Assembly (NCBI GenBank): GCA_944372455.1 | Contig: CALVZF010000001.1 | Coordinates: forward strand, 1,815-65,814 | Direction of reading: 5' to 3' | Length of the DNA: 64,000 bases | DNA from: an uncultured Bacilli bacterium | Lineage (GTDB): Bacteria; Bacillota_I; Bacilli_A; RF39; UBA660 | Part shown: piece after piece, positions 45,820-64,000 of the stretch | How the letters are laid out: every line of letters begins with the position of its first letter | How positions within the stretch are numbered: position 1 is the first letter of the stretch | Notes under the pieces: generated by a model | Databases searched by the model: none | What the model was told of the DNA's origin: nothing | The model's input: only the letters and a program-made list of their open reading frames with translations | Made by a program: the position numbers and the translations under genes

Positions 45820-45898
45820 AACAAAAGTCATCAAAAATAAAATGGTGACTTTTCATTTTTTATAAATATATACATATCATTAATTAGAGGTGGAATTT

Positions 45899-46916: not shown

Positions 46917-46993
46917 GTCCTGGTAGCTCAGTTGGATAGAGCAATCGCCTTCTAAGCGATCGGTCAGGGGTTCGAATCCCTTCCAGGACACCA
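46917..46993 (+). tRNA. tRNA-Arg (anticodon TCT)
   Basis: Cloverleaf: acceptor GTCCTGG/CCAGGAC, D-arm GCTC-AGTTGGATA-GAGC, anticodon loop CTTCTAA, T-arm GGGGTTCGAATCCC, encoded CCA. Confidence 0.9.
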
Positions 46994-46999
46994 CTTTAT

Positions 47000-47084
47000 G
47001 CGGATGTGGCGGAATTGGCAGACGCACTAGACTTAGGATCTAGCGGAGCAATCCATGGGGGTTCAAGTCCCTTCATCCGCACCA
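47000..47084 (+). tRNA. tRNA-Leu (anticodon TAG), long variable arm
   Basis: Acceptor GCGGATG/CATCCGC, anticodon stem-loop CTAGA-CTTAGGA-TCTAG, variable arm, T-arm GGGGTTCAAGTCCC, encoded CCA. Confidence 0.9.
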
Positions 47085-47726: not shown

Positions 47727-49009
47727 ATGCAAGAAAAAAAAATAATAGCTGGTTTATATCCTCGTGTATCAACTGAGGATCAAAGTAGATATGGACATAG
47801 TCTAGATGAACAAGAAGATAGATTAAAGAAATTGTGTGATTATAAGGAATATGAAATTTATAAAGTCTATCGTGAAGAAGGGGTTTCAGCTAAAAGTATG
47901 AAACGACCTAAATTTCAAGAAATGATTGAAGATATGAAGTCTGGTAAAATAAATAAAATTATTGTTTATAAATTAGATAGATTAACTCGTTCTATACAGG
48001 ATTTAGAAAGTATCTTTAGAATGCTTGAAGAATATGATTATAGCTTAGAAAGTGTATCAGAAGATATTAATACTGAAACAGCAACTGGTAAATTCTTTGT
48101 TAGAATGACTACAATACTAGCTCAACTAGAAATTGAAAGATGTTCTGAAAGAACTAAATTTGGTTTAGTAGGAGCTGCTAAAAAAGGTCATATAAGTGGA
48201 CAGCCACCTTTAGGTTATACTAAAGAATCAGAAAATAAATCTATTATAATTGATGATGTACAAGCTGAAGTTGTAAGAAGAATATTTAGATTGTATCTTG
48301 ATGGTATGTCAGTATGTTCTATTTGTAAATTATTTAAAGAAGAAAATGTATTAAATAGAAGATGGCCTACTACAACTGTAGATAAAATATTATCTAATCA
48401 ACTCTATATTTGTAATGTGGTTCATAGAAAAAGATCTGGTGAAGATGTAGAAATATTTGAAGATGTTGTACCTGCAATTATAGATAAAACTGATTTTGAA
48501 ATGGTACAAAAAGCAAAGAAAAGAATCTAAAGAATTATATGAGAAAACATACTTTTATCTTTATGCAGAAAATTAAATGTCCTAAATGTAATAAGATTAT
48601 GGGTGGATGCTCTAGTACAAGTAAAACTGGTAAGAAACATATCTATTATCAATGTTCAAAATGCAGAATGAGAATCAGCGAGAAGAAATGTGAAAAATCC
48701 ATCTTAAAATTCTTAAATGATATGTTGGATTTCTTCTTAATAATTGATAATTCATTTAAACCTATAATGAATAAAGACACATCAAATGAAATAATAAAAT
48801 ATAAAAATAAATTATCAGAACTAGAAGAAAAAGATACAAGAATTAAGAAGGCATTTGTTGATGGATTATTAGAACCAGATGATTTACAAACTGAAATTAA
48901 ATTATTAAATTCGGAAATTGATATTGTAAAAAACAAAATAAATGAGTTAGAAAAGTTACAAAATTCATTAGATTATAAACAAGATATTAATACATTCTTT
49001 AATCTATAA
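47727..49009 (+). pseudogene. large serine recombinase (resolvase + recombinase + zinc-ribbon/coiled-coil), split by a frameshift near 48500-48530
   Basis: N-terminal catalytic YPRVSTEDQ and recombinase domain in frame 0 (47727-48530). Zn ribbon CPKCNK...CSKC and coiled coil continue in the -1 frame from 48500, open to 49009. The junction sits in an A-rich tract. Confidence 0.7.
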
Positions 49010-49021
49010 GAAATAGAAAAA

Positions 49022-49462
49022 ATGAAAATAAAATCTGACTATGTTAAACAAAATAATCTATGGATAAAACTAACTAAAGAACAGAAACAATACATTATAA
49101 ATAAGTATATTGATGAGTTTGAAGTTAAAGTAGATAAAGATTATAATGTTCAAATCACTAATATTATTTTCAATAAAAATGAATTAGAAAATATTGGATA
49201 TATGTTTAGAAATGATTGTTTTGATCTAATTGTTAACGTAAAAGATAGAGATATTATTTTATCTAACCATAAAACTGATGAAGAAACTATAAACTATATT
49301 GATACACTAAAAAATTTTTATAAGATAACTGAAACAGAAATTACTGGAGAATTATTTAATATAAATGATTATGATAATGATGAAATTATTCAAATAATTC
49401 CACAAGAAAAAAAGAATAAATTTGAAAAAAATAAATTTAAAATTTTACAAATTGAAGCATAA
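49022..49462 (+). CDS. hypothetical protein
   Basis: 146 aa ORF with no recognisable domain. Confidence 0.3.
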   Translation: MKIKSDYVKQNNLWIKLTKEQKQYIINKYIDEFEVKVDKDYNVQITNIIFNKNELENIGYMFRNDCFDLIVNVKDRDIILSNHKTDEETINYIDTLKNFYKITETEITGELFNINDYDNDEIIQIIPQEKKNKFEKNKFKILQIEA

Positions 49463-50223: not shown

Positions 50224-51111
50224 ATGAATAATTTTAACTTAAATTTGTTTAAATATTTCTATTATGTCGTTTATTACAATGGGTTTACTAATGCATCAAA
50301 AAATTTAAATATTGCTCAATCATCATTAAGTTATAATATAAAACAATTAGAATTACAGTTAGATAAAACATTAATTATTAGAGATAATAAGATTTTTGAA
50401 TTAACTGAAGATGGATATAATTTGTATGAAAATCTAAAATCCGCTTTTATTATTTTAAATCAAAATTTGGAACAATTTGATAATAAAAATACTATGGAAT
50501 TGACTATTGGGGTTAGACATTATTTATCAGATTTTATTTTTTTAGATTCGATAGTTGAATTTATTAATACATATCCTAATATCCATATTAATATAAAACT
50601 ATATTCTAAATTGGATGTTAAAAAATTTGAAGATGAATATGATGTGTTAATTGATTATGAAGATTATACTAATTTAATTAATACTAATAATAAAGATTTA
50701 TTATGTATTTTAAACAATACTTTTGTTTCAGGAAAAGAACTATCAAAAAATTATGATTCAATTCAATCTATTAAAGAACTAGCAAATACGAGATTAATAT
50801 CAATGTGTCCAAATAAACGAAATGGTAAATTTCAAAAAATGTGTTTTGAAAATGGTATTTTATTTAAAAACATTATATCAGTTAATGATAGTATAATATC
50901 TAAGGAATTAGTAAAGAATAATTTAGGATTATGCTTTGTTAATAGGGAGTTTTTTAAAGAAGAAATTGCAAATGGAGATGTAAAAGAAATTAAAGTAAAA
51001 GAACAATTGTTTAATGACAGTGTATATATTGTTTATAAAAATGGTAAAAATATTAATAACATAAACAAATTTATTAAGATATTAAAAAATCAATATAAGG
51101 AGGAATTATAA
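50224..51111 (+). CDS. LysR-family transcriptional regulator
   Basis: N-terminal LysR HTH (LNLFKYFYYVVYYNGFTNASKNLNIAQSSLSYNIKQLE) and substrate-binding domain length. Confidence 0.8.
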   Translation: MNNFNLNLFKYFYYVVYYNGFTNASKNLNIAQSSLSYNIKQLELQLDKTLIIRDNKIFELTEDGYNLYENLKSAFIILNQNLEQFDNKNTMELTIGVRHYLSDFIFLDSIVEFINTYPNIHINIKLYSKLDVKKFEDEYDVLIDYEDYTNLINTNNKDLLCILNNTFVSGKELSKNYDSIQSIKELANTRLISMCPNKRNGKFQKMCFENGILFKNIISVNDSIISKELVKNNLGLCFVNREFFKEEIANGDVKEIKVKEQLFNDSVYIVYKNGKNINNINKFIKILKNQYKEEL

Positions 51112-51626
51112 TGAGTAAGTGGGACTTATATGATGATAAATTTAATAATACTGGAATTATTATAAATGATACTGATGAAATACCCGATGGTAAGTATCAT
51201 TATTCTATAAATGCATGGATATTAAATTCAAAAAAACAATTATTATTAATACGAAATACTTTAAATTATAATATTCATTATCCTGGTTTTTGGAATAGTA
51301 TTAATGGTAATGTTTTAAGTGGTGAAAGTCCAACTGATACCTGTATTAGAGCAATTAATTCTAAAATTGGAATAAAAGTTTCAAATTATGATATTAAAAA
51401 AATAGATACAAAATTGCGTGATCCTTATCATTACATTTATGAAACTTATATAGTTAATAAAGATATTAATTTAAATGAGATATGTTTTGCAGATAATACT
51501 GTTGTTCAGGCAAAATGGATTGATTTGAATGAATTATATAACATGATTGAAAATGGGGAAATCGCGTGGGTTTTAATTCCAAGAATAGAAGAATATGTAA
51601 TACCGCTAATGAAAGAGACTAACTAA
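51111..51626 (+). CDS. Nudix-like hydrolase (degenerate Nudix box)
   Basis: Nudix-fold length and partial box (GESPTDTCIRAINSKIG); overlaps the LysR stop. Confidence 0.45.
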   Translation: MSKWDLYDDKFNNTGIIINDTDEIPDGKYHYSINAWILNSKKQLLLIRNTLNYNIHYPGFWNSINGNVLSGESPTDTCIRAINSKIGIKVSNYDIKKIDTKLRDPYHYIYETYIVNKDINLNEICFADNTVVQAKWIDLNELYNMIENGEIAWVLIPRIEEYVIPLMKETN

Positions 51627-51668
51627 AATTGAACTGAACCCCAAAAGTTGGACAGTTTATAATTAGTA

Positions 51669-52508
51669 TTAATTAGAGGATTGTAACCTGTAATTTACAG
51701 GAGACAGTCCTTTTAATTTTTCTTTAAGTCTATCATGATTATAATAATAAATATAGTCATCTATTGCATTTATTAAATTATCCAATGTCTCATATTTATC
51801 TTCCTGATCATAAAACATCTCTGTTTTTAGTATTCCGAAAAATTTTTCCATTAATCCATTATCCATACTATTTCCTTTTCTGGACATACTTTGTTTTATA
51901 CCTTTATTTTTTAATCTCTGTTGATATGTGTCATGTTGATATTGCCATCCTTGATCAGAGTGAAATATTAAACCCTCTAAATTTCTTCCATCAAAAGCTT
52001 TATTTAACATATCATTTATTTGTTCTAAATTTGGTGATTTAGAAACATTATAGGATATTATTTCTTGATTGAATCCATCTAATACTGGTGAAAGATAGAT
52101 TTTTTCTCCTCTTAAATTAAACTCTGTAACATCAGTATACCATTTTTTATTTGGTTTATCTGCTTCAAAATCTCTGTTAATAAGATTATCTGCAATTTTA
52201 CCGATAGTTCCTTTATAAGAAGAGTATTTACTTTTATTTCTTTTTAAAGGTCTTAATCCCGATTTAACCATTAAACGATATACTTTTTTATGATTTACTT
52301 TATAGCCACGATTTCTTAATTCTAAAGTTATTCTGCGATAACCATATCTTTCTTTATGTTTAAAAAATATTTCTTTTATTTTATCAATTATTTCGCTGTT
52401 TTTATCATCTTTATCATTTTTAGATAAAGTATAATAATAAACGGATTTTGCCAATCCTGATACTTTTAGAAGAATCTTTAATGGATATGTTAGCCGAAGT
52501 TCATTCAC
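51669..52508 (-). CDS. IS3-family transposase OrfB (DDE/rve integrase core)
   Basis: Integrase core motifs (WYTDVTEF, HSDQGWQYQ). -1 frame relative to orfA with an AAAAAG slippery tract at the junction. Confidence 0.85.
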   Translation of the reverse strand: MNELRLTYPLKILLKVSGLAKSVYYYTLSKNDKDDKNSEIIDKIKEIFFKHKERYGYRRITLELRNRGYKVNHKKVYRLMVKSGLRPLKRNKSKYSSYKGTIGKIADNLINRDFEADKPNKKWYTDVTEFNLRGEKIYLSPVLDGFNQEIISYNVSKSPNLEQINDMLNKAFDGRNLEGLIFHSDQGWQYQHDTYQQRLKNKGIKQSMSRKGNSMDNGLMEKFFGILKTEMFYDQEDKYETLDNLINAIDDYIYYYNHDRLKEKLKGLSPVNYRLQSSN

Positions 52509-52513
52509 AACAC

Positions 52514-53020
52514 TTACTTTTTCTTCTGTTGTTGATTCTTCCTTGCTTGAACAACAGCTCTCAATTTTTTTGAGTATTCTAATTCTGCCTTCAAATATAA
52601 TTTTTCTTCTTCTAATCTTTTGATTTTTTCATCTTTAGTTTCATTTTCTTTTTTCTTTTCTACTTTTGGCATAGTTGGACGACCTCGCTTTCGTTCAACT
52701 ATATTATAACCGTTTTCTTTGTATTTTTTAATCCAATTTTGTAACATTCCATCGCTTGACAAACCTATATCTAAAGATACTGACCATACTGGTTCTTTAT
52801 TTAATAGTACTCTATCTATTGCATCCTGTTTAAACGTTATAGGGTAACTTTTATTTCTTGATGTCTTGACCACATCAAATCCATGTATATCTATTAATTT
52901 TATTAAATATGTAATTCCTGATTCCCTTTTATTATATTTTCTTGATAATGTATTTATTGATGAACCTTCTTTGTAATCGTGGCATAAATTTATTTTATCT
53001 TCATAACTTAATTTGCTCAT
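52514..53020 (-). CDS. IS3-family transposase OrfA (HTH + leucine zipper)
   Basis: HTH near the N-terminus, basic/coiled-coil C-terminus ending KKNQQQKKK before the frameshift window. Confidence 0.8.
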   Translation of the reverse strand: MSKLSYEDKINLCHDYKEGSSINTLSRKYNKRESGITYLIKLIDIHGFDVVKTSRNKSYPITFKQDAIDRVLLNKEPVWSVSLDIGLSSDGMLQNWIKKYKENGYNIVERKRGRPTMPKVEKKKENETKDEKIKRLEEEKLYLKAELEYSKKLRAVVQARKNQQQKKK

Positions 53021-53161
53021 ATAAAAACCTCGTTTCTATGTCCAAGAAACGGGGTTCATATCAAATTGATTAGTCTCTTTATTATTGATTTTTTCTATAT
53101 GTTATATCGAATTTTTGAATGATTAAAATGTACTGTATTATTATATAATATATGTGATTTG

Positions 53162-54692
53162 GAGTGATTATATGCAAAGTATACCAGATTCATTAAAACG
53201 AATTATAGAAAAAAATCCAATTTTGGAACATACCGTTAGAGGATTACCAAATTTAGGTGAAAACTTAGTTGATGGTCAATTTTCCAGAGAAGTTAATAAA
53301 ATTTATGATGCTTTTGAATTATATGGCAATGATTTATATGAACTTGAAAATGAAAGAATTAAAAATATTTCTTCAAGATCACTTGGTGGTGGAAGTCCAA
53401 TGAGAACATTTGCATTTCCTTTATGTAAAGAAGAACTAATTAAAATAATTGATAGCGATAAGTTATCAGATTATCCTATGGCTGCAGGTGATGAGGAGTC
53501 AAGAAAAATAATTTTAGAATATTTAAATCAAGAAGGATTTAAAAGTAATAGTGGGTTATCAAAAGATAATATTATTTTTACAGTTTCCTCTACACATGCA
53601 TTTAACATTATTTCAAGTATTATTGCTAGGCCATATGATGTAATATTAATGACAGGTCCAAATTATGGCTTATTTACGTTTGTTCCTGAACGTATTTCTG
53701 GGGCAACTGTTGAGATTTTGCCATTATCTGAAGAAGATAATTGGTATGTTAATCCACAAAAGTTATCAAAAAGGATTGATGAAATTAATGCAGATTTAAA
53801 AACTAAATATGGTGAATCTTTAGGATATACACCAAAAGTTGTTGCATTTTTAAATGAAAATCCACATAATCCTTTAGGCAAAGTAATGAATGAAAATAAT
53901 AAAGAAATACTTGAAGGTATTGGAAATGTTTGTTTATCAAAAGGTGTATTTGTTATAGATGATTTAATATATAGAGACCTAACTTATGATAGAAATAATT
54001 TAGCAAAACCGATAGCTTCTTATGAAAAATTCTTTGATAATACAATAACAATAACTGGTTTATCAAAATCTTATGGTTTAGCATCGATTAGATCTGGTAT
54101 GGTAGTTGCAAATGAGATAATAATTAGAGCGATACGAAATAAAATTTTTCAAACAATGGATTCTTCACCAGTATTACAAGGTAGAGCTTTGGCTGGTGCA
54201 TTTAACGCATCTGAAAGACGAAAAAAAGAGTATAATAATTATTTTAATCCAATTATTGAGGAATATAAATATCGTTTAGAATTATTGAAAGCATTAATTA
54301 ATGGTATAGATTTTATTAAAGATAGTAACTTAAAAGTGCAAATAGAAAATGATATAAGAAATTATGCTTATGATTATAATATAAGTCAAATTTTAGACGG
54401 AATACCAAATATCGATTTTGTAAATGGAACAATACCTGATTCTGGATTTTTTGAAATGTTAGATTTTACAGGATTAAAAAACAAAGTTGCTGAAAACGGT
54501 AGAGTAATTAGTGATGAAAAAGAATTGCTTAAATATTTGTATGAACAAGAAAAAATTAAACTTATATTAGGTCAATCAATATCATGGCCAAATGAGGAAC
54601 AACTTATAGGAAGAGTTACCACTGCACTTCCAAGAGAAGATTTAGTTGAACATTTTGGTGCAATGAATAAATGTTTAAGGAAGTTGAAATAA
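53162..54692 (+). CDS. PLP-dependent aminotransferase (class I/II fold)
   Basis: NENPHNPLG (NPxNPTG-like) and PLP-lysine motif SKSYGLASIRSG. Confidence 0.75.
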
Positions 54693-54693
54693 A

Positions 54694-55566
54694 ATGAAAA
54701 ACGTTGGAATTATATCTTGTGATAAGTGGATGAATAAAATCACTGAAGATTTATTATTAAAGCAAGAATTAATGAATAATAATATAAATGCGAAAATTAT
54801 TTCGTGGGAAGACATGACAATTGATTATTCAAAATTTGATTGCTTAATATTGCGTTCAGCTTGGGGGTATCAAGATAAATATTTAAAATTTAAAGAATGG
54901 TTGCAGATGATAAAAAATAAAAATATTTTATTATTAAACTATCCAGATATTATTATTAATAATATTCAAAAGAATAAACAATTTAATATTTTAGAAAGAA
55001 ATAATATTCCATTCATCCATACTAGTTTTGTATACAATGAAGATGATTTATTAGAAAGACTTAATTTAAATCCTTTAATAGTTGTTAAACCAATAATATC
55101 TGGAAGTGGAAAAAATACATATTTAATAAATCGAGATGATTTATTAAATTTAAGAAATATATTAAATAAATTAAAAAATATTTTTATCCAGAATGATAAT
55201 GGAATAATGATACAACCATATATTAATGGTATAGAAAATGGTGAGTATTCTTGTATTTTTATTGATGGTATTAATACCCATAATATGTTAAGGTTTCCTG
55301 GTATTTTTTCAGAAAAAAAAAGACCGATATATTTATCAGACATACCACATTGTGTTAAAAAAATAGCAAATGATGTATCGAAATTAGAGGAATTTACAGG
55401 TTATTTATATATGCGAGTTGATATTGTATTACAAGATGGTAATCCAATAATTATGGAAGTTGAACTAGCCGAACCAGATTTGTTATTTAAGTATATTGAA
55501 TACGACAAAGTTAGAGATCGAGGAATAAAATTACTATCAAAAAGTATAGTTAGGAGAATAAAATAA
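54694..55566 (+). CDS. ATP-grasp family ligase (RimK/glutathione-synthetase-like)
   Basis: Domain length and pattern (pre-ATP-grasp, then IVVKP...SGSGKNTYLI, central and C-terminal lobes); by eye only. Confidence 0.5.
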   Translation: MKNVGIISCDKWMNKITEDLLLKQELMNNNINAKIISWEDMTIDYSKFDCLILRSAWGYQDKYLKFKEWLQMIKNKNILLLNYPDIIINNIQKNKQFNILERNNIPFIHTSFVYNEDDLLERLNLNPLIVVKPIISGSGKNTYLINRDDLLNLRNILNKLKNIFIQNDNGIMIQPYINGIENGEYSCIFIDGINTHNMLRFPGIFSEKKRPIYLSDIPHCVKKIANDVSKLEEFTGYLYMRVDIVLQDGNPIIMEVELAEPDLLFKYIEYDKVRDRGIKLLSKSIVRRIK

Positions 55567-56816
55567 TGAAAACTTTATTATATTTTGAGGAATATGAATC
55601 TGATCTTTCAAAAGCATTGAGAAGAAGAAAAGATATTAATGTTTTATTTATTAGAACAGATAAGAATATAAATTTTTTTAGTAATGAGTATTTAGAAAAA
55701 TACAAAGATTATTATCAATTCTTCTATTATAATGATTTTGATATAGAAATTCATAAGTTTAAAAATTGGCTGAATCATAAAAAAATTAAAGTAGATTATT
55801 TTTTAAATGATTCTGAATTTTATATGGAGTATTCAAATAAAATTGCTGATAAACTTGGATTAGATTGTTTAAGTCCTGAACAAGTAAAGTGGGTAAGAGA
55901 TAAAGTTGCTATGAAAGATAGATTTAATCAAATTGGTTTAAAAACAGTTGATTATCAAATTGTTACTTCTAAAAAAGATATTTTGGAATTTATGAAAAAG
56001 CATTTAGGAGAACCAATTATATTTAAACCGAGAGATTTAATGAATAGTAAAAATGTATTTAAAATTGATTGTATTAGTGATTTAGATCAAATAGATTTAA
56101 ACTTAGAAGATGAAAGGTATATGGTTGAATCATATTGCTATGATCAAGAATGGTCAATAGAAAGTCTTGTTCAAAATGGTATAGTACTTGATTCTTATGT
56201 AACTTATATACCTAATAGAACTTTATGGGCGGCAATGGATAATAGATTAAATTGTCATATGACAGTTCCTAAAACACCTAAATATTTTAAGTTTATTCCC
56301 AAAGACTTTATTCAAAAAATAGTAGACGGTATGAATTTAAAAAATGGTGTAATGACAATAGAGGTGTTCATAGATGACGATGGTAATGTGATGCCAAGTG
56401 AATTAGGATGGCGTTTACCTGGTTGTCAAGCAACTAAGAACCATAGCTTATCTTATGGGTTTGATATGATTGATGCATTAATTGATATAGTAATTCATAA
56501 AACAGTTGATTTAAAATATAGAGATGAAATTATTAGTGTAGGTGACTTATATCTTCCTAATAAATCAGGGTTAATAGAAAAAATAACGCCATTAGAAAAA
56601 TTATTAAAAATGAATGGTGTAATCGATGGTGAAATGTTTGTTAAAACTGGAGATTATCGAGAAAAAAGAAGAGTTGGAAATGATGCATCTGGTTGGGTTC
56701 AAGTTTCAGGTAAAAATGAATTTGATACATTAAGAAAGATGCAAGCTGTTTATGATGATTTTGAAATAGTATCATCAGATGATATAGGAGGAAGAAAATA
56801 TGTTAAAAAGATTTAG
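55566..56816 (+). CDS. ATP-grasp family ligase (possible L-amino-acid ligase)
   Basis: ATP-grasp core (DKVAMKDRFNQIGLKT...IIFKPRDLMNSKNVFKI, ME-loop region); start overlaps the upstream stop. Confidence 0.55.
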   Translation: MKTLLYFEEYESDLSKALRRRKDINVLFIRTDKNINFFSNEYLEKYKDYYQFFYYNDFDIEIHKFKNWLNHKKIKVDYFLNDSEFYMEYSNKIADKLGLDCLSPEQVKWVRDKVAMKDRFNQIGLKTVDYQIVTSKKDILEFMKKHLGEPIIFKPRDLMNSKNVFKIDCISDLDQIDLNLEDERYMVESYCYDQEWSIESLVQNGIVLDSYVTYIPNRTLWAAMDNRLNCHMTVPKTPKYFKFIPKDFIQKIVDGMNLKNGVMTIEVFIDDDGNVMPSELGWRLPGCQATKNHSLSYGFDMIDALIDIVIHKTVDLKYRDEIISVGDLYLPNKSGLIEKITPLEKLLKMNGVIDGEMFVKTGDYREKRRVGNDASGWVQVSGKNEFDTLRKMQAVYDDFEIVSSDDIGGRKYVKKI

Positions 56817-57591
56817 TGGATATTTATTAGTAATTATACCTATTATATTAATAACAACTGGTTGTACAAATAAATTAAGTGTTATAAATAAAAAAGATGA
56901 TTTAAATAATAAAAATATAGGTGTATATACAGGTTCAGAATATGATAGCATTGCAGAAGATAACATAGAAAATCCTAAAATCTTATATTACAACAGCTAT
57001 AGTGATCAAATATCTGCTTTAAAATCTGGTAAGATAGATGGTTTCCTAGCCGATAAACCTTTAGCGAAAGAAATAATAAAAGAAAATACGGAATTAAAAA
57101 TATTAAAAGAAAAATTAACAGAAGATAGTTATGCATTTGCTATTAATCCAGAAAAAAGTAATTTGCAGTATGAGATTAATAAAGAATTAGTTAAGATGAA
57201 TAAAAATGGTAAATTAAAAGCATTTGAAGATAAATGGATGGGTAATGATGAAAGCAAGAAAGAATTAGAAGTTTATCATTATGATGATTCAAAAGGCGTG
57301 GTTAAATTTGCTACGGTATCTGGTTCAGCACCATTTGCTTACATGAAAAATAATAAAATAGTTGGATATGATATTGATGTTATTAGTTATATTTGTAAAG
57401 AATTAGGTTATAAATTAGAGATTATAGAAATGTCATTTGATGGAATAATACCAGCATTAAAATCGGGAAAAGTAGATATAGCTGGATGTTCGATTATTGT
57501 TACTGAGGAAAGAAAAAAATCTGTTTTATTCTCAGAACCAGATTATACTGGTGGAATTGTAGTAGTTGTTAGAGGAACAAATGAAAAGTAG
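56800..57591 (+). CDS. amino-acid ABC transporter substrate-binding lipoprotein (SBP family 3)
   Basis: Lipobox LITTGC; SBP_bac_3 motifs (IGVYTGSEYD, GKIDGFLADKP, GYDIDV...GKVDIAG). Confidence 0.8.
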   Translation: MLKRFSGYLLVIIPIILITTGCTNKLSVINKKDDLNNKNIGVYTGSEYDSIAEDNIENPKILYYNSYSDQISALKSGKIDGFLADKPLAKEIIKENTELKILKEKLTEDSYAFAINPEKSNLQYEINKELVKMNKNGKLKAFEDKWMGNDESKKELEVYHYDDSKGVVKFATVSGSAPFAYMKNNKIVGYDIDVISYICKELGYKLEIIEMSFDGIIPALKSGKVDIAGCSIIVTEERKKSVLFSEPDYTGGIVVVVRGTNEK

Positions 57592-58357
57592 AACTAAGTT
57601 TATAAAAATTTTTACTGTATTATTTCTTATACTAATAGTTATATTTATTAGTAAGAATGTAATTATAGATTTTTTAATTAATATTAGTAATAGTTTTAAT
57701 CGAACAGTAATAGTAGAAAAAAGATATATTTTATTCTTAAAGGGATTAAATTCAACTCTATTAATTTCATTCTTATCAATTATATTTGGCACATTATTAG
57801 GAATTATTTTATTCTTGTTACAAAGATTAAAGATACGAGTTTTAAATATATTATCGTATATGGTGGTACGTTTTTTGCAGGGGATTCCAGTAACAATATT
57901 ATTATTAACATTCTATTTTGGAATTTTTGGAGATATAAAAATAGAACCTATTTTAGTAGCAATAATAACATTCTCAATATATTTTTCAGTATATGTTTCT
58001 GAAATTGTTAAAGGATCATTTCTATCAATTAATAGAACACAAATTGATTCTGCTTATGCTTTAGGTTTTACTAAACTTCAAGCAGTTAGATATATAATTA
58101 TTCCTCAAGTGCTTTCGTATGTAATACCAGTTTATAAAAACGAAAGTGTTTCATTAATAAAATCTACTTCTATAGCTGGATATATATCTATAATAGAACT
58201 AACTAAAGCAAGTGATATCATAAGAAATAGAACTTATGAAGCATTTTTCCCATTAGTATTTACATCGCTTATATATTTTATAATTTGTTATGCATTTTGT
58301 AAATTATTGGATCTATTGTATAAGAAAATTAATCCAAGGATGGTGAAAAAATCATGA
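57581..58357 (+). CDS. amino-acid ABC transporter permease (His/Glu/Gln/Arg/opine family)
   Basis: EAA-like loop (ESAYALGFTKLQAVRYIIIPQ) and 5 TM helices. Confidence 0.8.
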   Translation: MKSRTKFIKIFTVLFLILIVIFISKNVIIDFLINISNSFNRTVIVEKRYILFLKGLNSTLLISFLSIIFGTLLGIILFLLQRLKIRVLNILSYMVVRFLQGIPVTILLLTFYFGIFGDIKIEPILVAIITFSIYFSVYVSEIVKGSFLSINRTQIDSAYALGFTKLQAVRYIIIPQVLSYVIPVYKNESVSLIKSTSIAGYISIIELTKASDIIRNRTYEAFFPLVFTSLIYFIICYAFCKLLDLLYKKINPRMVKKS

Positions 58358-59025
58358 AAAAAGATTGCATATTAGAATTTGAAAATGTTTCAAAATACTA
58401 TGGTGATGAATTGGTATTTAATAATGTTAATTTAAAAATTAAAAAAGGTGAAGTGATTTCTATAGTAGGAAAAAGTGGAAGTGGAAAGAGTACTTTATTA
58501 AAGTGTATAAACCGTTTAGAAAGTATTGATAATGGTAATATAAAGTTTAAAGGGATGGATATAGCAAAAAAATCTCTTGTGGAATTAAGACAAAAAATTG
58601 GTATAGTATTTCAAGATTATAATTTATTTGAACACCTAACTGTATTTGATAATCTTATGATAGGTTTAATTAAAATAAAGGGTTACTCTAAGAAAGATAG
58701 TATTCATAAGGTTTTAAATATTTTAAAAAAAATGGATTTGACTGATAAAAAGGATAAATATCCAGATGAATTATCTGGAGGGCAAAAACAAAGAATTGCT
58801 ATTGCCAGAACTCTATTAATGGAACCAGATATTATTCTTTTAGATGAACCTACAAGTGCTTTAGATAAAGAAATGAGAGATAGTGTATTAGAATTAATTA
58901 ATGACCTTGTTGATGAAGATATGACTTTAATTGTAGTATCACACGAAAATGAATTTGTTAATAAAGTGTCAGATAGAATTTTTATCCTTAATAAACATAC
59001 TTTATTGGAGAAGAAAAATGGATAG
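58354..59025 (+). CDS. amino-acid ABC transporter ATP-binding protein
   Basis: Walker A GKSGSGKST, signature LSGGQKQR, Walker B ILLDEPTSALD. Confidence 0.9.
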   Translation: MKKDCILEFENVSKYYGDELVFNNVNLKIKKGEVISIVGKSGSGKSTLLKCINRLESIDNGNIKFKGMDIAKKSLVELRQKIGIVFQDYNLFEHLTVFDNLMIGLIKIKGYSKKDSIHKVLNILKKMDLTDKKDKYPDELSGGQKQRIAIARTLLMEPDIILLDEPTSALDKEMRDSVLELINDLVDEDMTLIVVSHENEFVNKVSDRIFILNKHTLLEKKNG

Positions 59026-59905
59026 TATCAATAGTTATAAAATTATAGAAAAATTTCTATTAGGTGGTTCATCTGTTCAAAAATATATTGTTGAAAAAAA
59101 CAATAAAATATTCTTGCTAAGATTATATGATATAAGATTTATGAATAGTAGATATAGAGCTTTTGATAATATTAGAATCTTATATGATAATGGAATAAAT
59201 GTTCCTGAAATATATGATTTTGGTGAACTTTCTGATAATAAACATGGTTATGTTGTTATGGATTGGGTTGATGGAGTTTCTTTAGATAATTTATTAACTG
59301 ATGATAGTTGTTTAATTAATAAATATGTAAAAATAGTGGCAAATGAATTATTAAAAATGCATAGTATAGCTATAAATGAAAATATAGATATACATGATAA
59401 GTTTATAAAGTCGTTTAATAAGAAAATAAATAAGTTGAAAAATCTTGGTATAGATTATACATCTTCAGTTTTAGAATCGTTTGTTTTAGATAATAGTAAA
59501 GTTTTAAAAGAATTGGATACAAGTATTATACATGGAGATTTTCACCCTGGAAATATAGTAGTTAATGATGATAGTATTTGTTTTATAGATATGGATGTAT
59601 GTAAGAATGACTTTGCTTGGGTGGATCTATCAACAAATGCTTGTAATCTCAATTATCCTAAGTTTTATACAGCTTTAATAAATGAGTATTTTGATAATAA
59701 TATACCAGATGATTTTTGGCTAATATATAATCTATACGGTTTATTATATTGCTTAGATTATATACTTTATTGTAGTAGAATGGATAATAAAACACTTGAA
59801 GATGGTACTACAGTCTTAAAAAAATTTTTAGATTATTCAGATGAATTTAGTTCATTGAAACCTAAGTGGTTTGATAATAGTAAGGTTTTAAGAAAGGAAA
59901 AATAG
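59018..59905 (+). CDS. APH/ChoK-fold phosphotransferase (kinase)
   Basis: Brenner motif IIHGDFHPGNIVV and DFG-like ICFIDMDV; start overlaps the upstream stop (ATGGATAG). Confidence 0.7.
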   Translation: MDSINSYKIIEKFLLGGSSVQKYIVEKNNKIFLLRLYDIRFMNSRYRAFDNIRILYDNGINVPEIYDFGELSDNKHGYVVMDWVDGVSLDNLLTDDSCLINKYVKIVANELLKMHSIAINENIDIHDKFIKSFNKKINKLKNLGIDYTSSVLESFVLDNSKVLKELDTSIIHGDFHPGNIVVNDDSICFIDMDVCKNDFAWVDLSTNACNLNYPKFYTALINEYFDNNIPDDFWLIYNLYGLLYCLDYILYCSRMDNKTLEDGTTVLKKFLDYSDEFSSLKPKWFDNSKVLRKEK

Positions 59906-59907
59906 AT

Positions 59908-60834
59908 ATGAGAGAATTGAAAAAATATGAAGGAAATAGAGTTATATTAATGGCTTGTTCAAAATGTAATGTTGCTTGCAAACATTGTTACATAGGATAT
60001 GCTGGAAATAGAACTCCAGAAGAACTAAAAATATTAGCAGAACATTATAAAAATAAATATAAAATAGTAAGAATAGATGGTGCCGAACCACTTGTTGACT
60101 TAGGATATTTGCCTTCTTACAAAATAGTTGAACAAGATTGGATTATGACAAATGGCCTTAGAATATTTCAGGAGCCTGAGATAATAGATTTATTATTAGA
60201 AAATGGAATAAGAAATGTATTTATGTCTTATCATTTTGAAATACAAGATAGTTTAAATGGTATTACTAATGAGATGTTAAATGAAGTTATTAAAATATTA
60301 AGAGAAAAAGGAATTAGAGTTGTTTTAATGACAACAATTACAAACAAAAATGCTAAAGATACTTTAGAAATATGTGATAATGCATATGAATTGGGTGCAT
60401 CTGGAATAGAATTTAATAAAATATTTATTCAAGGAAGAGCTAAGAATCTATCTAATATTGGATTAGTAAAAGAAGATTATGATTGTTTTTTTACACAGTT
60501 AAAACAGGCTAGAGACAAATATGATATAAATGACTTTGAAGTAAGAAGAAGTGGTACTTTTGGTTGTGATACTGTTAATGAGCCAAATAATTTTAGATGT
60601 AGTGCAGGTGTAAAAAAAGTATGTATTACACCTGATGATAAAGTTTATGGTTGCACATGTATTTGTAAACCAGGTTATGAAGTTGGAAAAATAATTGATG
60701 GTGAAATATATATATATTCTGATTTTGAAAATGATCGTACATGGTGTTTAGGCGATAAAATGGGTGAATTAGGTATCGAAAATATTCAGGATCTTAATAA
60801 TCCAAAAATTAAGAGTTTAGTTAGAAAGATTTAA
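59908..60834 (+). CDS. radical SAM enzyme with C-terminal SPASM/twitch-like Cys cluster
   Basis: CNVACKHCY (C-x3-C-x2-C) near the N-terminus; C-terminal FRCSAGVKKVCITPDDKVYGCTCICKPG auxiliary-cluster cysteines. Confidence 0.7.
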   Translation: MRELKKYEGNRVILMACSKCNVACKHCYIGYAGNRTPEELKILAEHYKNKYKIVRIDGAEPLVDLGYLPSYKIVEQDWIMTNGLRIFQEPEIIDLLLENGIRNVFMSYHFEIQDSLNGITNEMLNEVIKILREKGIRVVLMTTITNKNAKDTLEICDNAYELGASGIEFNKIFIQGRAKNLSNIGLVKEDYDCFFTQLKQARDKYDINDFEVRRSGTFGCDTVNEPNNFRCSAGVKKVCITPDDKVYGCTCICKPGYEVGKIIDGEIYIYSDFENDRTWCLGDKMGELGIENIQDLNNPKIKSLVRKI

Positions 60835-60835
60835 T

Positions 60836-61603
60836 ATGAATAAGAACGAATTAAATAATATACTAAAAAAGTACTATTCTTTTAGCGATGTAGCTATGAG
60901 TAAATTGAATATAAATGATAAGCAACATTTTGATTTAGTGATTGTTTCTCCAACTTGGAAACCGCATTTTGTATTTAATGAAAAATATAGTGTCGAAAAT
61001 TTGAAAAAAGGAAGCACTTCTACATTTATTTTGTATTATAATAATAAAAAAATATTATTTATTAAGACTGGCAAAGGAGCACCAAATATGTTTGATAATT
61101 TACTACTATTGAGAAATATCGATGCACCATATATATTTTTAGGATCTGCTGGTTCTTTGAGTGAAAATGTTCAGGAGGGAGATATTTTTATACCAGATTA
61201 TTCTATTTCAGGTGATGGTGCATCATTATATTTTGAAAAGAAAATAGATACTGCTAATTTTTGTAATAAAATATTTTTTAGTACTGAAATTAAACAACAT
61301 ATCGAGAGTGTTTTAAAAAATAGTAATTTTTCGTATAAAACTGGTGGAATTTATTCCACGGATACATTAATTGGCGAATATTATCATACTCAAGAAATAA
61401 TAGAACTTGGTGCATCTTGCATTGAACAAGAAACTGCTTCATTTGGTAAATGTATGAAAATTATGGAAAAAGAAGGGTTTCCAATTTTAGTGATATCTGA
61501 TTCATTAGTTACTGATACAAGCTATTATGAACCAATCGAGAATAAGCAAAAATACCTTTTAACTAGAACAAAAAAACTACAAAAGATAATTAGTAAATTT
61601 TAG
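60836..61603 (+). CDS. PNP/UDP-phosphorylase-fold (nucleoside phosphorylase/nucleosidase family) protein
   Basis: GSAGSL...GDIFIPD and IEQETASF patterns typical of the PNP_UDP_1 fold; by eye only. Confidence 0.45.
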   Translation: MNKNELNNILKKYYSFSDVAMSKLNINDKQHFDLVIVSPTWKPHFVFNEKYSVENLKKGSTSTFILYYNNKKILFIKTGKGAPNMFDNLLLLRNIDAPYIFLGSAGSLSENVQEGDIFIPDYSISGDGASLYFEKKIDTANFCNKIFFSTEIKQHIESVLKNSNFSYKTGGIYSTDTLIGEYYHTQEIIELGASCIEQETASFGKCMKIMEKEGFPILVISDSLVTDTSYYEPIENKQKYLLTRTKKLQKIISKF

Positions 61604-61611
61604 GGGGAATT

Positions 61612-62178
61612 ATGAAATATATAATAATGTCAGATGGAAAAGGAACAAGATGGAATAATTATCTTGGCATTACGAAACAAGAAGTTATTATTAACAATGA
61701 AAGATTAATTGATAGAACTATTAGAATGATTTTAGAAAGGTCAATTGATGATATATATATATTATCAAGTAATCAAAGTCATGAAAGTAAATATGCGAAG
61801 AGAATAGTTTCAAAATATGATGATTATTTTCATAAAAAGTATGCTTACGATTATCTTGATGATTCAATAACTTATTTATATGGAGATACATTTTATGATG
61901 AAAAAACAATGGATATAATTATAAAAGATATATGTGAGAACATAAGTTTTTATGGTAATGAACATGCAATTGTTGCCGTGAAAGTAAATAATTATAAGTT
62001 ATTAAAGAATGTAATAGATAACTCAGATAACAGTCATCATTCTCTTTATCATTTATTTGACAATTTTGAAGAGTATAGAACTTTTGTTAATGTTGGAGAT
62101 GGATTTGTCAATATAAATACTCCAAATGATTATACTAACTTAATTAAAAATGATAAAAGATTGATATTAAAGAGGTAA
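61612..62178 (+). CDS. MobA/LicC-like NTP-transferase (nucleotidyltransferase)
   Basis: N-terminal IIMSDGKGTRW (cf. LAGGxGTRL/M) signature of sugar or phospho-alcohol nucleotidyltransferases. Confidence 0.5.
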   Translation: MKYIIMSDGKGTRWNNYLGITKQEVIINNERLIDRTIRMILERSIDDIYILSSNQSHESKYAKRIVSKYDDYFHKKYAYDYLDDSITYLYGDTFYDEKTMDIIIKDICENISFYGNEHAIVAVKVNNYKLLKNVIDNSDNSHHSLYHLFDNFEEYRTFVNVGDGFVNINTPNDYTNLIKNDKRLILKR

Positions 62179-62182
62179 TTAT

Positions 62183-63088
62183 ATGCTTGATGAAATAGTT
62201 GTACAAATAATAGAAAAAAATATAAACGAAAAAATAACAAGTATAAAGCAAATTAATTCTGGCTACAGTAGAATAATTTTTCTGATAAATGATAAATATA
62301 TTTTGAAAATTGTCACTAATCCCATTAAAGATAATAATACAATTAAAGAAGTGAATTTTTTATTAAATAATGATATTCTAGAATTTATTCCAAAGGTGAT
62401 ATTTTGTGATTTTACAAAAAAGTCTTTTCCATATGTATACTATTTAGAAAGAAAAATTAATGGAGAATCATTATTATTAAAATGGCCTTTATTAAAAGAA
62501 AGTGAAAAACAACAAATATTAGTTCAATTATTGGAAAAGTTAGATAAATTACATTCTCTTGATTATAGTTCACATTTTGATAATAATTGTTTAGATTTAC
62601 TATTAAAAGAATATGATAATTACTTAAGTAAAATTATATATTCTAAAATTTTAAACAAAGAAAAAATACATTATTTATATGAATTAAAGAATACAATTCC
62701 ATATTTATTAGAAGGCGCAAAAACTGGATTAATTCATGGAGATTTGCATTTTAATAATATTTTAGTTAATGATGATAATAAGATATCAATAATTGATTTT
62801 GAAAAATTAAAACATTCATTTGTTGAGAGGGAATTAGATCCTATAAATCGTATGTCAAGAAATCCTAATTCTTTTAATACTAATCCAAAAATTGTATTAA
62901 TCGATTATGATTTTCGAAATATTATGAATTTTATAAAAAATAATTTTGAAGCGATAAATAATGATAAATTTGATGACAGATTATTACTTTTTGATTGTTT
63001 AAACTCATTAATGTGGTTAGAAAAGTATCCTAAATATGAGTTATATAATGATATTCTTTTTAACAAAAGTAAAAAATTATTAAGGTAA
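62183..63088 (+). CDS. APH/choline-kinase-fold phosphotransferase
   Basis: LIHGDLHFNNILVN and IIDFE motifs. Confidence 0.65.
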   Translation: MLDEIVVQIIEKNINEKITSIKQINSGYSRIIFLINDKYILKIVTNPIKDNNTIKEVNFLLNNDILEFIPKVIFCDFTKKSFPYVYYLERKINGESLLLKWPLLKESEKQQILVQLLEKLDKLHSLDYSSHFDNNCLDLLLKEYDNYLSKIIYSKILNKEKIHYLYELKNTIPYLLEGAKTGLIHGDLHFNNILVNDDNKISIIDFEKLKHSFVERELDPINRMSRNPNSFNTNPKIVLIDYDFRNIMNFIKNNFEAINNDKFDDRLLLFDCLNSLMWLEKYPKYELYNDILFNKSKKLLR

Positions 63089-63130
63089 ATGTGATATAAT
63101 ATAATTGATTAAAGAATGGAGTGAAGTTGT

Positions 63131-63658
63131 ATGAAAGAAATACTATATAATTATGATAATTTAAAGTTAGAGGATATTGATGAGGTTGTTACTAGAACAA
63201 AGGGTTTGATTATTAATAGTAATAATGAAATAACTTTAGGCTATTCTCATAAAACTTACCAATTTCCAGGTGGTCATTTAGAGCATGGCGAAAGTTTAGA
63301 AGAATGTTTATTAAGAGAAATAGCAGAAGAAACAGGAATAGAAATAAAAGATGCTAAATTAAAACCTTTTGAAAAAATTACTTATTATAGTAAAAATTAT
63401 CATGGATCTGGTAAAAATAGAAAAAATGATATTTATTATTATATTATAAATACTGATGCTAAATTTGATATGAACAATTCAAAATTAGATAATTGGGAAA
63501 AAGATGGTAATTTCACTGTTAAGACTTTCCCAATCGAAAACATTGAGCAAGTATTAATTGATAGTATACCTGATAATCCAATCAACAAGGTGATTGTTGA
63601 AGAAATGTTAGATATTTTAAAAGAATATAACAAAATAAGTAATATGGATAGAGATTAA
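63131..63658 (+). CDS. Nudix hydrolase
   Basis: Nudix box GGHLEHGESLEECLLREIAEETGIE. Confidence 0.8.
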   Translation: MKEILYNYDNLKLEDIDEVVTRTKGLIINSNNEITLGYSHKTYQFPGGHLEHGESLEECLLREIAEETGIEIKDAKLKPFEKITYYSKNYHGSGKNRKNDIYYYIINTDAKFDMNNSKLDNWEKDGNFTVKTFPIENIEQVLIDSIPDNPINKVIVEEMLDILKEYNKISNMDRD

Positions 63659-63659
63659 T

Positions 63660-64000
63660 ATGAAGTATTTAATTGTAATTGATAGTGATGGTACATTAAG
63701 ACATTCTGATGGTAATATTTCTGATAAAACCAAAAAAATTATGAAAAAGGTTGTGGACTGTGGAAATATTGTTGTTATTTGCACTGCAAGACCTAGATAT
63801 TATACATTAAAGGTTTCAAATGAAGTAGGTTTAAACGAGTATTTAATATCATCTAATGGTACAGAAATCTATGATAACATTAATAAAAAAAATATTTATT
63901 CTACATATTTACCAAAAGAGGAATGTAAAATAATATATCAAGAAACAAAGAAACTTGGGCTTAGAGTTATGTTCGTATCAGAAAATACTGAATATGTAAC
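63660..64000 (+). CDS. HAD-superfamily (Cof-like, IIB) phosphatase, 3' end outside the window
   Basis: Motif I VIDSDGTL and Cof-like spacing (ICTARP); truncated by the window end. Confidence 0.6.
   Translation, partial: MKYLIVIDSDGTLRHSDGNISDKTKKIMKKVVDCGNIVVICTARPRYYTLKVSNEVGLNEYLISSNGTEIYDNINKKNIYSTYLPKEECKIIYQETKKLGLRVMFVSENTEYV

Follow-up and report, generated by a model that had tools for sequence, protein, structure and literature searches.

Pseudouridimycin is made by the aminotransferase PumG, the kinase PumH (which carries out a cryptic phosphorylation), the phosphatase PumD, and the ligases PumK and PumM, which attach glutamine as well as a second acid to a nucleoside amine and yield a glutamine-containing dipeptidyl nucleoside (PMC8724604). 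For puromycin and 3'-amino-3'-deoxyguanosine, the aminotransferase Pur4, the Nudix enzyme Pur7, and the monophosphatase Pur3 act on intermediates at the nucleoside triphosphate (NTP) level, and an amino acid is then coupled (PMC9239236, PMC11641026). The pathway for 4'-thiothymidine contains the radical SAM enzyme ThmA, the nucleoside kinase ThmB, and the self-resistance NTPase ThmC (PMC12691670). Here we describe a gene cassette from an uncultured Bacilli bacterium that combines many of these enzyme classes. It lies in a 64,000-nucleotide stretch of contig CALVZF010000001.1 (assembly GCA_944372455.1, positions 1,815 to 65,814, forward strand), which we call the window. The cassette is an uncharacterised mobile cluster family that is built from known enzyme superfamilies and matches no known pathway, and a literature search found no paper that describes it.

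Domains were assigned by Pfam and NCBIfam profile searches of the open reading frames (ORFs), and window proteins were compared by tblastn with related loci that we fetched (numbered L001 and so on). The cassette comprises:

50224..51111, + strand: LysR-type transcriptional regulator (Pfam HTH_1, LysR_substrate), which opens the conserved cassette
51111..51626, + strand: Nudix-fold protein with a degenerate box (Pfam NUDIX, 39.5 bits); its start overlaps the LysR stop
53172..54692, + strand: class I/II (fold-type I) pyridoxal-phosphate (PLP) enzyme, 506 aa (Pfam Aminotran_1_2, PF00155, 94 bits)
54694..55566, + strand: grasp1, DcsG-like ATP-grasp ligase (NF058666, 97.5 bits; PF27100, DcsG_N)
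55566..56816, + strand: grasp2, L-amino-acid-ligase-like (Pfam ATP-grasp_4 and LAL_C2)
56800..59025, + strand: polar-amino-acid-type ABC importer, three genes (Pfam)
56800-57591, + strand: its substrate-binding protein (SBP), an SBP_bac_3 lipoprotein (Pfam, 111 bits)
57581-58357, + strand: its BPD_transp_1 permease (Pfam, 59 bits)
58354-59025, + strand: its ABC ATPase (Pfam, 143 bits)
59018..59905, + strand: APH-fold small-molecule kinase 1 (Pfam APH, PF01636, 69 bits; HGDxxxxN present)
59908..60834, + strand: radical SAM enzyme, 308 aa (SPASM/twitch structural clan); accessory, tailoring
60836..61603, + strand: PNP/MTAN-fold protein (Pfam PNP_UDP_1, 59.5 bits); accessory
61612..62178, + strand: small nucleotidyltransferase-like protein (Pfam NTP_transferase, 18.5 bits, cut-off 21.2); accessory
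62183..63088, + strand: APH-fold kinase 2 (Pfam APH, PF01636, 46.6 bits)
63131..63658, + strand: Nudix hydrolase with a complete GX5EX7REUXEEXGU box (Pfam NUDIX, 50.5 bits)
63660..64000, + strand, cut by the window end: Cof-type HAD-IIB phosphatase with a DxDGT motif (Pfam Hydrolase_3, 86 bits); the cassette's last gene

From the PLP enzyme onwards, 13 tightly packed + strand ORFs (53154-64000) make up 11 functional items if the importer is counted once. The original prediction, which was made from the letters alone, had described an eleven-item cluster with overlapping junctions and had named its folds; the ORFs bear out the former, and the Pfam and NCBIfam searches confirmed the folds. Adjacent genes overlap by 1-17 bp or are separated by gaps of 1-8 bp, with a single exception, a gap of 42 bp. 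We found no terminator-like sites on the + strand within this operon. A promoter scan was uninformative (126 sites versus 134 expected for 24% GC DNA); the window is very AT-rich, with 20-29% GC throughout. Metagenome gene callers start the PLP enzyme at ATG 53172, and its longest ORF begins at GTG 53154. The full-length HAD protein has 259 amino acids and is encoded at 10972-11751 of an identical metagenome contig, L001, which puts its stop about 440 bp beyond the end of the window.

When compared by enzyme class, the closest published logic is that of pseudouridimycin, with puromycin related; this is a resemblance, not membership, as each pathway has defining enzymes that the cassette lacks. 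Every cassette in the family has an aminotransferase, a kinase, a phosphatase, and two amide ligases; the likeness to pum is one of logic only. A further likeness is that the cassette's SBP is of the Gln/Arg type and the pum pathway uses glutamine. However, the cassette lacks pum's pseudouridine synthase (PumJ), GMC oxidoreductase (PumI), N-hydroxylase, amidinotransferase, and exporter, and pum in turn lacks the cassette's importer, Nudix hydrolases, radical SAM enzyme, and APH-fold kinases. The hosts differ as well: low-GC gut Bacilli for the cassette and the actinomycete Streptomyces for pum.

The pathways for puromycin, A201A, and 3'-amino-3'-deoxyguanosine share only the Nudix and phosphatase classes with the cassette. 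It has neither a Pur10-type NAD dehydrogenase nor a synthetase of the Pur6 type or size, and amino-acid coupling would be by ATP-grasp enzymes instead. The likeness to thmABC and to the thionucleoside part of albomycin comes from cassette variants with dTMP-kinase-like or deoxynucleoside-kinase (dNK)-like genes together with Nudix or MazG-like genes.

Bacilysin, rhizocticin, tabtoxin, and dapdiamide are dipeptide antibiotics of another kind: they involve an L-amino-acid ligase (LAL) and a class I aminotransferase, and the products are Trojan-horse di- or tripeptides. Logic of the bacilysin and rhizocticin kind had been suggested for the cassette, but membership in a bacilysin-type cluster fails on every gene except for a weak match of grasp2 to the BacD model (NF053745; 35.4 bits against a cut-off of 850, and over residues 75-168 only). 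The cassette has no equivalents of BacA, BacB, BacC, or BacG, no phosphoenolpyruvate mutase, and no MFS exporter; a short-chain dehydrogenase/reductase gene downstream in L001 falls outside the conserved unit. Conversely, bacilysin-type clusters have no counterparts for the cassette's kinase, Nudix, HAD, and importer genes. For D-cycloserine, no domain expected for DcsA-F is present among the cassette genes; because of this, and because grasp1 scores far below the DcsG cut-off, the substrate of grasp1 would differ from that of DcsG.

The original prediction also drew on the LicA/LicC route, in which a kinase and a nucleotidyltransferase activate a head group. The cassette does share a kinase and a small nucleotidyltransferase with lic. 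This idea is weakened because the nucleotidyltransferase is dispensable, being absent from many variants; because no Choline_kinase match is listed for either kinase; and because the cassette genes of the window and of the examined variants include nothing like a glycosyl- or polymer-transferase or a flippase. LicB and LicD are also absent from the cassette genes of the window, L001, L004, L005, L027, and L031.

Three other comparisons were rejected. For anti-phage defence, PADLOC returned nothing from the PLP enzyme, either ligase, the PNP-fold protein, or the NTP-transferase. Its matches were weak, fold-level ones from the kinases, Nudix proteins, and radical SAM enzyme, and the top one (PDC-S07, E = 6e-11) covers about 45 residues around the Nudix box. 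Salvage of methionine or 5'-deoxyadenosine would combine an MTAN, a methylthioribose kinase, a HAD enzyme, and an aminotransferase, but the match to methylthioribose kinase is negligible (E = 0.005 over 28 residues), there is no isomerase, dehydratase, or aldolase, and the PNP-fold protein is accessory. The Pbo cluster of Pseudomonas syringae is unrelated; what it shares with the cassette is limited to an LAL, a Nudix protein, and a radical SAM enzyme of the lysine-aminomutase type.

Conservation, boundaries and mobility

In a collection of 185,579 species with one genome per species, the cassette is found in 23 species, and all of the hosts are metagenome-assembled genomes (MAGs) of uncultured gut Bacilli or "Tenericutes". 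There are about 25 related loci in these species. Judging by the names of samples and contigs, the material came from the gut of rabbits, goats, and Hadza humans. L008, a circular MAG of 1.52 Mb, is the genome most closely related. The radical SAM enzyme belongs to a tiny family: among 5.8 billion proteins, a word-indexed search found 90 clusters, all from uncultured Bacillota/Bacilli, and an exhaustive profile search of 1.84 billion representatives found 93 of them at E <= 1e-30.

We compared gene order by using the tblastn table of window proteins against all fetched loci, along with the gene tables of the loci. The common order is LysR, Nudix-like, PLP enzyme, grasp1, grasp2, SBP, permease, ATPase, kinase, (radical SAM), kinase, Nudix, and HAD. 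This order persists at identities as low as 35-65%, while in every locus the sequence on either side is unrelated. The LysR and Nudix-like pair is immediately 5' of the PLP enzyme in all of the other genomes. For instance, LysR is directly upstream of the PLP operon in L004, L005, L008, L010-L012, L014-L017, L019, L020, L027, L031, and L032. The genes form one co-conserved functional unit. Another possibility had been a well-known pathway next to an unrelated amino-acid uptake operon; since the genes are co-conserved across about 25 loci and their flanks are unrelated, this does not hold.

The conserved unit runs from LysR (50224) to HAD. DNA similarity to the related loci begins at about 50170-50224, depending on the locus. 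None of the related loci shares DNA with the window or with L001 upstream of about 50180 or past the HAD stop, so the cassette is about 13.5 kb, not counting an insertion sequence (IS), in variable surroundings. In L001, the 3' side of HAD has about 1.1 kb with no called gene and then unrelated genes.

Three features lie upstream of the cassette or inside it:

46917..47084, + strand: tRNA-Arg(TCT) and tRNA-Leu(TAG) (ARAGORN, Rfam)
47727..49462, + strand: large serine recombinase pseudogene (Pfam Resolvase, Recombinase, and Zn-ribbon domains)
51630..53062, - strand: IS3-family element with orfA (52514-53020) and orfB (51669-52508) (Pfam rve, HTH_21, HTH_Tnp_1)

The IS3 element has the two overlapping ORFs of its family (an HTH transposase and an rve integrase core) and TG...CA ends. 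The terminal inverted repeats, as read from the sequence, are TGAAC...TTGGACA and TGTCCAA...GTTCA. The original prediction started the cluster at 53162, downstream of IS3. The element is indeed there, but the conserved unit begins at 50224 and the IS lies inside it. In a DNA comparison, positions 51622 and 53066 of the window correspond to positions 3129 and 3135 of L010, which, like L017, has no IS; therefore, IS3 is a clean insertion inside the cassette. The insertion point is the loop of a terminator-like hairpin, AAAGAGACTAA...TTAGTCTCTTT, which directly follows the Nudix-like gene and ends the LysR/Nudix-like unit, and the stretch before the PLP gene is undamaged. No target-site duplication is evident in the sequence. 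This is the only copy of the IS3 element in the 64-kb window, and the metagenome assemblies L001 and L002 break at it.

The tRNA genes and the broken serine recombinase had been noticed before, and ARAGORN, Pfam, and tblastn verified them. The recombinase gene is disrupted by one frameshift near 48510-48530 and by a stop codon at 49007-49009. It aligns in two frames (tblastn) to an intact 607-aa large serine recombinase from L031, with about 67% nucleotide identity. In L031, the intact gene is beside TnpV and a relaxase (441-4294), upstream of a cassette variant that has no radical SAM enzyme; we take this layout to resemble a Tn4451-like mobilisable element. The cassette's carrier element probably integrated at the tRNA-Arg/tRNA-Leu pair.

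In several loci, the cassette has mobile-element genes next to it, either serine recombinase, TnpV, and relaxase genes or transposases. In L008 the neighbour is a putative DDE transposase of the IS4 type (judged by eye), and other transposases adjoin the cassette in L005 and L027. We found no cassette homologs in a plasmid collection (by tblastn) or in viral contigs, and we rejected carriage by plasmids or phages. Overall, the cassette, with its set of about 15 genes, is mobile, tightly conserved, and found only in MAGs of uncultured gut Bacilli.

Core enzymes and swappable genes

The universal core consists of LysR and the degenerate Nudix protein, the PLP enzyme, the two ATP-grasp ligases, the importer, two kinases, the Nudix hydrolase, and the HAD phosphatase. 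Even within this core, the kinase fold is interchangeable: kinases with the APH fold, as in the window, give way to P-loop kinases in L027, L029, L031, and L032. Their presence and absence across variants shows that the radical SAM, PNP-fold, and NTP-transferase genes are accessory. These are swapped with genes for sugar O-methyltransferase-like or dTMP-kinase-like proteins.

The PNP-fold gene is present only in the window's clade, L004, and L021, where it sits between the two ligase genes. It is absent from L005, L012-L016, L018, L020, L024, and L025, most of which lack the NTP-transferase too. In these same loci, kinase 2 and Nudix are separated by an additional gene of about 750 bp, which is dTMP-kinase/dNK-like where we scanned it (L005 and L012). 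The cassettes of L027 and L029 have no APH kinases. L027 has an AAA_28 P-loop kinase between its ligase genes and, farther on, a radical SAM paralog, a NanM-like gene, an AAA_18/dNK-like kinase, two Nudix genes, and a longer HAD gene. L031 and L032 have the layout of L027 minus any radical SAM gene and plus a MazG-like gene. In L021, L027, and L031, nucleoside-type genes thus stand between the two ligase genes. The NanM-like proteins are putative sugar O-methyltransferases (41 bits, cut-off 44). A second radical SAM paralog is carried by L004 and L005. Across the variants, the tailoring states are a radical SAM enzyme, a radical SAM enzyme with the paralog, the paralog with the methyltransferase, or the methyltransferase only.

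In pairwise matrices, the PLP enzyme is the most conserved of the core proteins (orthologs are 64-97% identical). Its best PDB matches, at about 45-53 bits, are to C-S lyase-like enzymes, aspartate and aromatic aminotransferases, KAT3, and ACC synthase. All of its NCBIfam matches fall far short of the cut-offs; one of them, to the tyrosine/nicotianamine aminotransferase model, reaches 65 bits. The SKS lysine, an NPHNPLG motif, and a C-terminal Arg are present, and we presume, from what is known of the class, that they are compatible with an alpha-amino-acid substrate. We did not use the AlphaFold2 (AF2) model of this protein (pLDDT 56). The length of 506 aa had raised the idea of NAD/SAM annulation of the SbzP type, which is not supported: the nearest matches are generic class I enzymes, and there were no SbzP or PsePQ entries among the best 60 of 63 PDB profile matches (E <= 1e-3).

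Among NCBIfam models and PDB entries, grasp1 is closest to DcsG (97.5 bits against a cut-off of 360; 6jil, E = 1e-12). Grasp2 is similar to the L-amino acid ligase 4wd3 (E = 1e-11 over residues 77-370) and to BacD (E = 1e-6). In Pfam, it matches ATP-grasp_4 at 34.4 bits (cut-off 27) and LAL_C2 at 26.3 bits (cut-off 29.4).

The ligases vary in a way that the PLP enzyme does not. Grasp1 is only 39-55% identical between lineages whose PLP enzymes are about 90% identical, and divergent ligase alleles are found inside cassettes whose other genes are 80-97% identical. One grasp1 allele is shared by the window, L008, and L009, and another is shared by L010, L011, L027, and L031. Despite this division, the PLP enzymes of all of these cassettes except L031 are 87-97% identical to one another. 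Grasp2 is also mosaic, to a lesser degree, with L027 grouping with L004, L012, and L031. These patterns suggest recombinational swapping of specificity. The ligase pair is a replacement hot spot, which fits a change of building block between lineages.

The importer is of the PAAT type, as it combines a family 3 SBP that has a lipoprotein signal with a BPD_transp_1 permease and an ABC ATPase, and it is present in all full-length related loci. The SBP is a circular permutant: residues 159-261 correspond to the N-terminal half and residues 30-148 to the C-terminal half of AncQR (4zv1). An alignment to PDB sequences shows that it keeps the Arg (in TEER) and the Asp of the family's pocket, which bind the alpha-carboxylate and the alpha-ammonium group in Gln-, His-, and Arg-binding proteins. 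Because tblastn matches span the full length in every orthologous cassette, the circular permutation can be taken as conserved.

Both kinases belong to the APH family, as had been predicted along with a likeness to choline kinases. For the latter, the matches listed for the two proteins at E up to 0.01 do not include Choline_kinase. Kinase 1 has no PDB sequence match and is weakly similar to fructosamine kinase. Kinase 2 is closest to APH(2'')-type kinases of aminoglycoside or sugar hydroxyls (APH(2'')-Ia in PDB, E = 2e-7).

The radical SAM enzyme has the CX3CX2C motif (C20/C24/C27) as well as conserved cysteines at C231, C249, C251/C253, and C280. The prediction of SPASM/twitch cysteines was thus correct, and the C-terminal ones fit a single auxiliary cluster, as in twitch domains. 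The AF2 model (pLDDT 87.7) places the protein in a structural clan with SkfB, SuiB, CteB, anSME, PqqE, BlsE, viperin, and MoaA. That is, it groups with small-molecule enzymes (BlsE, viperin, and MoaA) and with peptide maturases alike. We rejected a role in maturing RiPPs (ribosomal peptides that are modified after translation), such as those of the sactipeptide or ranthipeptide type: the 308-aa protein starts at the radical SAM core and has no peptide-recognition (RRE) domain, and the gene junctions are too tight for a precursor ORF.

Relatives of this enzyme with 43% identity are found in L006 (8957-17683) and L007, in a carbohydrate-type cluster. This cluster encodes a protein like glycerol-1-phosphate (G1P) dehydrogenase, BshA/MshA-like GT4-GNAT and other glycosyltransferase (GT) genes, an NDP-sugar dehydrogenase, and a PIG-L-like deacetylase. 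It also encodes a second twitch radical SAM enzyme and a homoserine-kinase-like kinase of the APH fold. It is an uncharacterised glycoconjugate cluster.

The PNP-fold protein is similar to DeoD-type PNP (PDB, E = 1.5e-7) and also to AMP nucleosidase. In BLASTP comparisons with E. coli DeoD and MtnN sequences, it appears to keep the ribose-binding E-x-E and the catalytic Asp (in an SD motif) but not Arg87 of DeoD. Methylthioadenosine nucleosidases likewise lack this arginine, so the PNP-fold protein is possibly a nucleosidase. The NTP-transferase-like protein is CobY/TIGR00454-like, at about 22 bits (CobY in PDB, E = 0.09). Its GxGTRW...K motif is invariant in 10 orthologs, and the ortholog in L012 reaches 33.6 bits against a sugar-1-phosphate nucleotidylyltransferase model.

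The box of the Nudix hydrolase (63131-63658) is intact in 21 orthologs. In contrast, the Nudix-like protein that follows LysR (51111-51626) is missing the REUXEE glutamates and is degenerate in all 16 orthologs. Its best NCBIfam match is to type 1 IPP isomerase (34 bits), which has the Nudix fold and is not a hydrolase. The Nudix-like protein is probably non-hydrolytic and may be a ligand-binding partner of the LysR regulator.

Possible functions of the cassette

We tentatively propose, with a probability of roughly 40%, that the cassette makes a specialised aminoacyl- or dipeptidyl-sugar or -nucleoside metabolite by a route with cryptic phosphorylation, and that the product is probably of the antimetabolite type. 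We observe the folds and motifs here, whereas we infer the substrates, the sequence of reactions, and the product. LysR and its catalytically dead Nudix-fold partner would control the operon from their own short transcription unit. The importer would take up an alpha-amino acid, given that the pocket is of the Gln/Arg type and that its backbone ligands are kept, and the PLP enzyme would make or convert an alpha-amino or alpha-keto acid building block. The DcsG-like and LAL-like ligases would then form two amide bonds via acyl-phosphates, with the hypervariable DcsG-like ligase picking a lineage-specific building block. Two kinases, of the APH fold in the window and P-loop proteins like dTMP kinase, AAA_28, or AAA_18 elsewhere, would phosphorylate a sugar or nucleoside partner. 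This partner might be supplied, activated, and tailored by the PNP/MTAN nucleosidase, the NTP-transferase, and the twitch radical SAM enzyme or the NanM-like O-methyltransferase. Finally, the Nudix hydrolase and the Cof-type HAD phosphatase would strip phosphates or pyrophosphates, which could either complete a cryptic phosphorylation or protect the producer from a toxic nucleotide-level analogue.

The original prediction of an amino-acid-derived metabolite formed with ATP-grasp ligases remains the best reading, but much of its argument was carried by the radical SAM, PNP-fold, and NTP-transferase genes, which proved to be accessory. Support for the sugar or nucleoside side comes from the PNP fold, the NTP-transferase-like protein, the APH(2'')-like kinase, the intact Nudix hydrolase, and the Cof-type HAD in the window. 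In the variants it comes from dTMP-kinase/dNK-like, AAA_28, AAA_18, NanM-like, and MazG-like proteins, a sugar-1-phosphate nucleotidylyltransferase-like fusion, and extra Nudix proteins. Further support is given by the nucleoside-type genes that lie between the ligase genes, by the lack of a peptide-binding domain in the radical SAM enzyme, and by the carbohydrate setting of its 43%-identical relatives. The swapped tailoring genes, the mosaic ligases that are far more divergent than their neighbours, and the adjacent mobile elements have the character of secondary metabolism.

Several observations weigh against this proposal. Although the importer is conserved, no variant has an exporter or a recognisable resistance gene. 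The cassette also lacks any glycosyltransferase, base- or sugar-forming enzyme, or NAD-dependent oxidoreductase, and because no enzyme would form the scaffold, the scaffold cannot be named. The PLP enzyme is of the class I, alpha-amino-acid type, unlike Pur4, which is reportedly a DegT-type sugar aminotransferase. Since L031 and L032 keep the PLP enzyme yet have no radical SAM enzyme or other oxidase, it probably does not aminate a sugar carbonyl. All matches to characterised enzymes are far below the family cut-offs. Finally, P-loop and APH kinase folds act on non-nucleoside substrates too.

The most serious rival is that the cassette is for salvage or detoxification: an amino acid or conjugate from the gut would be imported, phosphorylated, transaminated, ligated (for example, by a protective gamma-glutamylation type of reaction), and dephosphorylated to serve the cell itself, with LysR as a substrate-responsive activator. 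We consider this unlikely, but it deserves attention because the importer is everywhere, there is no exporter, resistance gene, or scaffold enzyme, and the PLP enzyme stands without an oxidase in L031 and L032. LysR-type regulators typically sense a substrate or an intermediate, kinase 1 is weakly fructosamine-kinase-like, and family 3 SBPs also bind opines and deoxyfructosyl-amino acids. Also, the host with the small 1.52-Mb circular MAG may depend on imports. On the other hand, the core has two ATP-grasp ligases, one of them hypervariable, and no variant has a catabolic-type amidase, peptidase, lyase, dehydrogenase, or deglycase. The swap between radical SAM enzyme and O-methyltransferase is the behaviour of tailoring genes, not catabolic ones, and the cassette is mobile and found in only 23 of 185,579 species. 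If salvage is correct, then gut Bacilli would have in this cassette a new route to a nutrient, and the route would be mobile among them. A somewhat less probable role is decoration of the envelope, with an NDP- or phospho-activated amino-acid or amino-alcohol head group being added to teichoic acid, glycolipid, or capsule. A PLP enzyme, an ATP-grasp amidoligase, and a HAD phosphatase are said to take part in amidation of the Campylobacter capsule. The kinases and NTP-transferase-like gene of the window, the sugar O-methyltransferase-like gene of the variants, and the setting of the distant radical SAM relatives (among glycosyltransferase, NDP-sugar dehydrogenase, and G1P-dehydrogenase-like genes) are consistent with decoration. 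The organism is walled, as it has a class A penicillin-binding protein (PBP), and a hypervariable ligase would suit surface variation. However, the NTP-transferase is missing from many variants, the Choline_kinase family is listed for neither kinase, and the cassette genes of the window and of the examined variants have no LicD-, LicB-, glycosyltransferase-, polymerase-, or flippase-like domains. Also, the flanks are unrelated between genomes, so there is no conserved partner transferase nearby, and the Nudix and HAD enzymes would destroy an activated donor.

Two more rivals seem improbable. The ligases and the PLP enzyme might build a public good, such as an opine-like metallophore or signal, which is secreted and then re-imported; in staphylopine-type operons, importers retake the loaded molecule. 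This would account for a conserved importer in an otherwise biosynthetic operon, and it accords with the nopaline-binding proteins among family 3 SBPs and with the 65-bit match of the PLP enzyme to the tyrosine/nicotianamine aminotransferase model. Yet the cassette has no exporter and nothing like nicotianamine synthase or opine dehydrogenase; known metallophore pathways leave no role for the kinases, Nudix, and HAD; and metallophore importers normally use SBPs of family 5 or family 8. We give this little credence. We give almost none to the idea that an uptake operon, nucleotide-metabolism genes, and ligases lie side by side by chance. Every gene does come from a common superfamily that is also found in primary metabolism, but this idea is refuted by synteny: order and content are kept in 23 species with unrelated flanks, the genes overlap, and nucleoside-type genes lie between the ligases.

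To return to the proposed amino-acid conjugate, a broader and more speculative possibility is that the cassettes encode a new family of amino-acid-sugar or amino-acid-nucleoside antimetabolites of uncultured, small-genome gut Bacilli. Lineage variants would arise via the recombining ligase and swappable tailoring genes, and the cassettes would have spread on serine-recombinase and transposase elements across many animal hosts. Such compounds would give the gut microbiome a new chemical weapon or signal, and the ATP-grasp and radical SAM chemistry behind them would be new as well. In any case, a conjugate pathway would make this an uncharacterised biosynthetic cassette in gut bacteria that have never been cultured, and our literature search found no described natural products from this group. 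New enzymology is likely because of the two ATP-grasp ligases, the very divergent PLP enzyme, and the tiny radical SAM clade. With about 13.5 kb, defined ends, and natural variants, the cassette is directly testable, and its hypervariable ligase offers a natural set of specificity variants.

Other features of the window

The window encodes an ABC exporter with a C39 peptidase domain (bacteriocin-type; 21172-23286), and a similar exporter is 1.7 kb upstream of the cassette in L005. A few kb upstream of the tRNAs are genes for a 609-aa protein with an N-terminal HTH_3 domain (37025-38854) and an N6/N4 DNA methylase (41346-42563), which may belong to a restriction-modification or mobile-element module. 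Two large ORFs, at 17103-18956 (617 aa) and 29973-31496 (507 aa), have no Pfam match at E <= 1e-5. The class A PBP (10807-13632, - strand) has a C-terminal Ig-like domain, and a GerM-like (Germane) protein is encoded at 45890-46864. Given these two proteins, the organism (23% GC, with relatives that some records call "Tenericutes") has a peptidoglycan wall.

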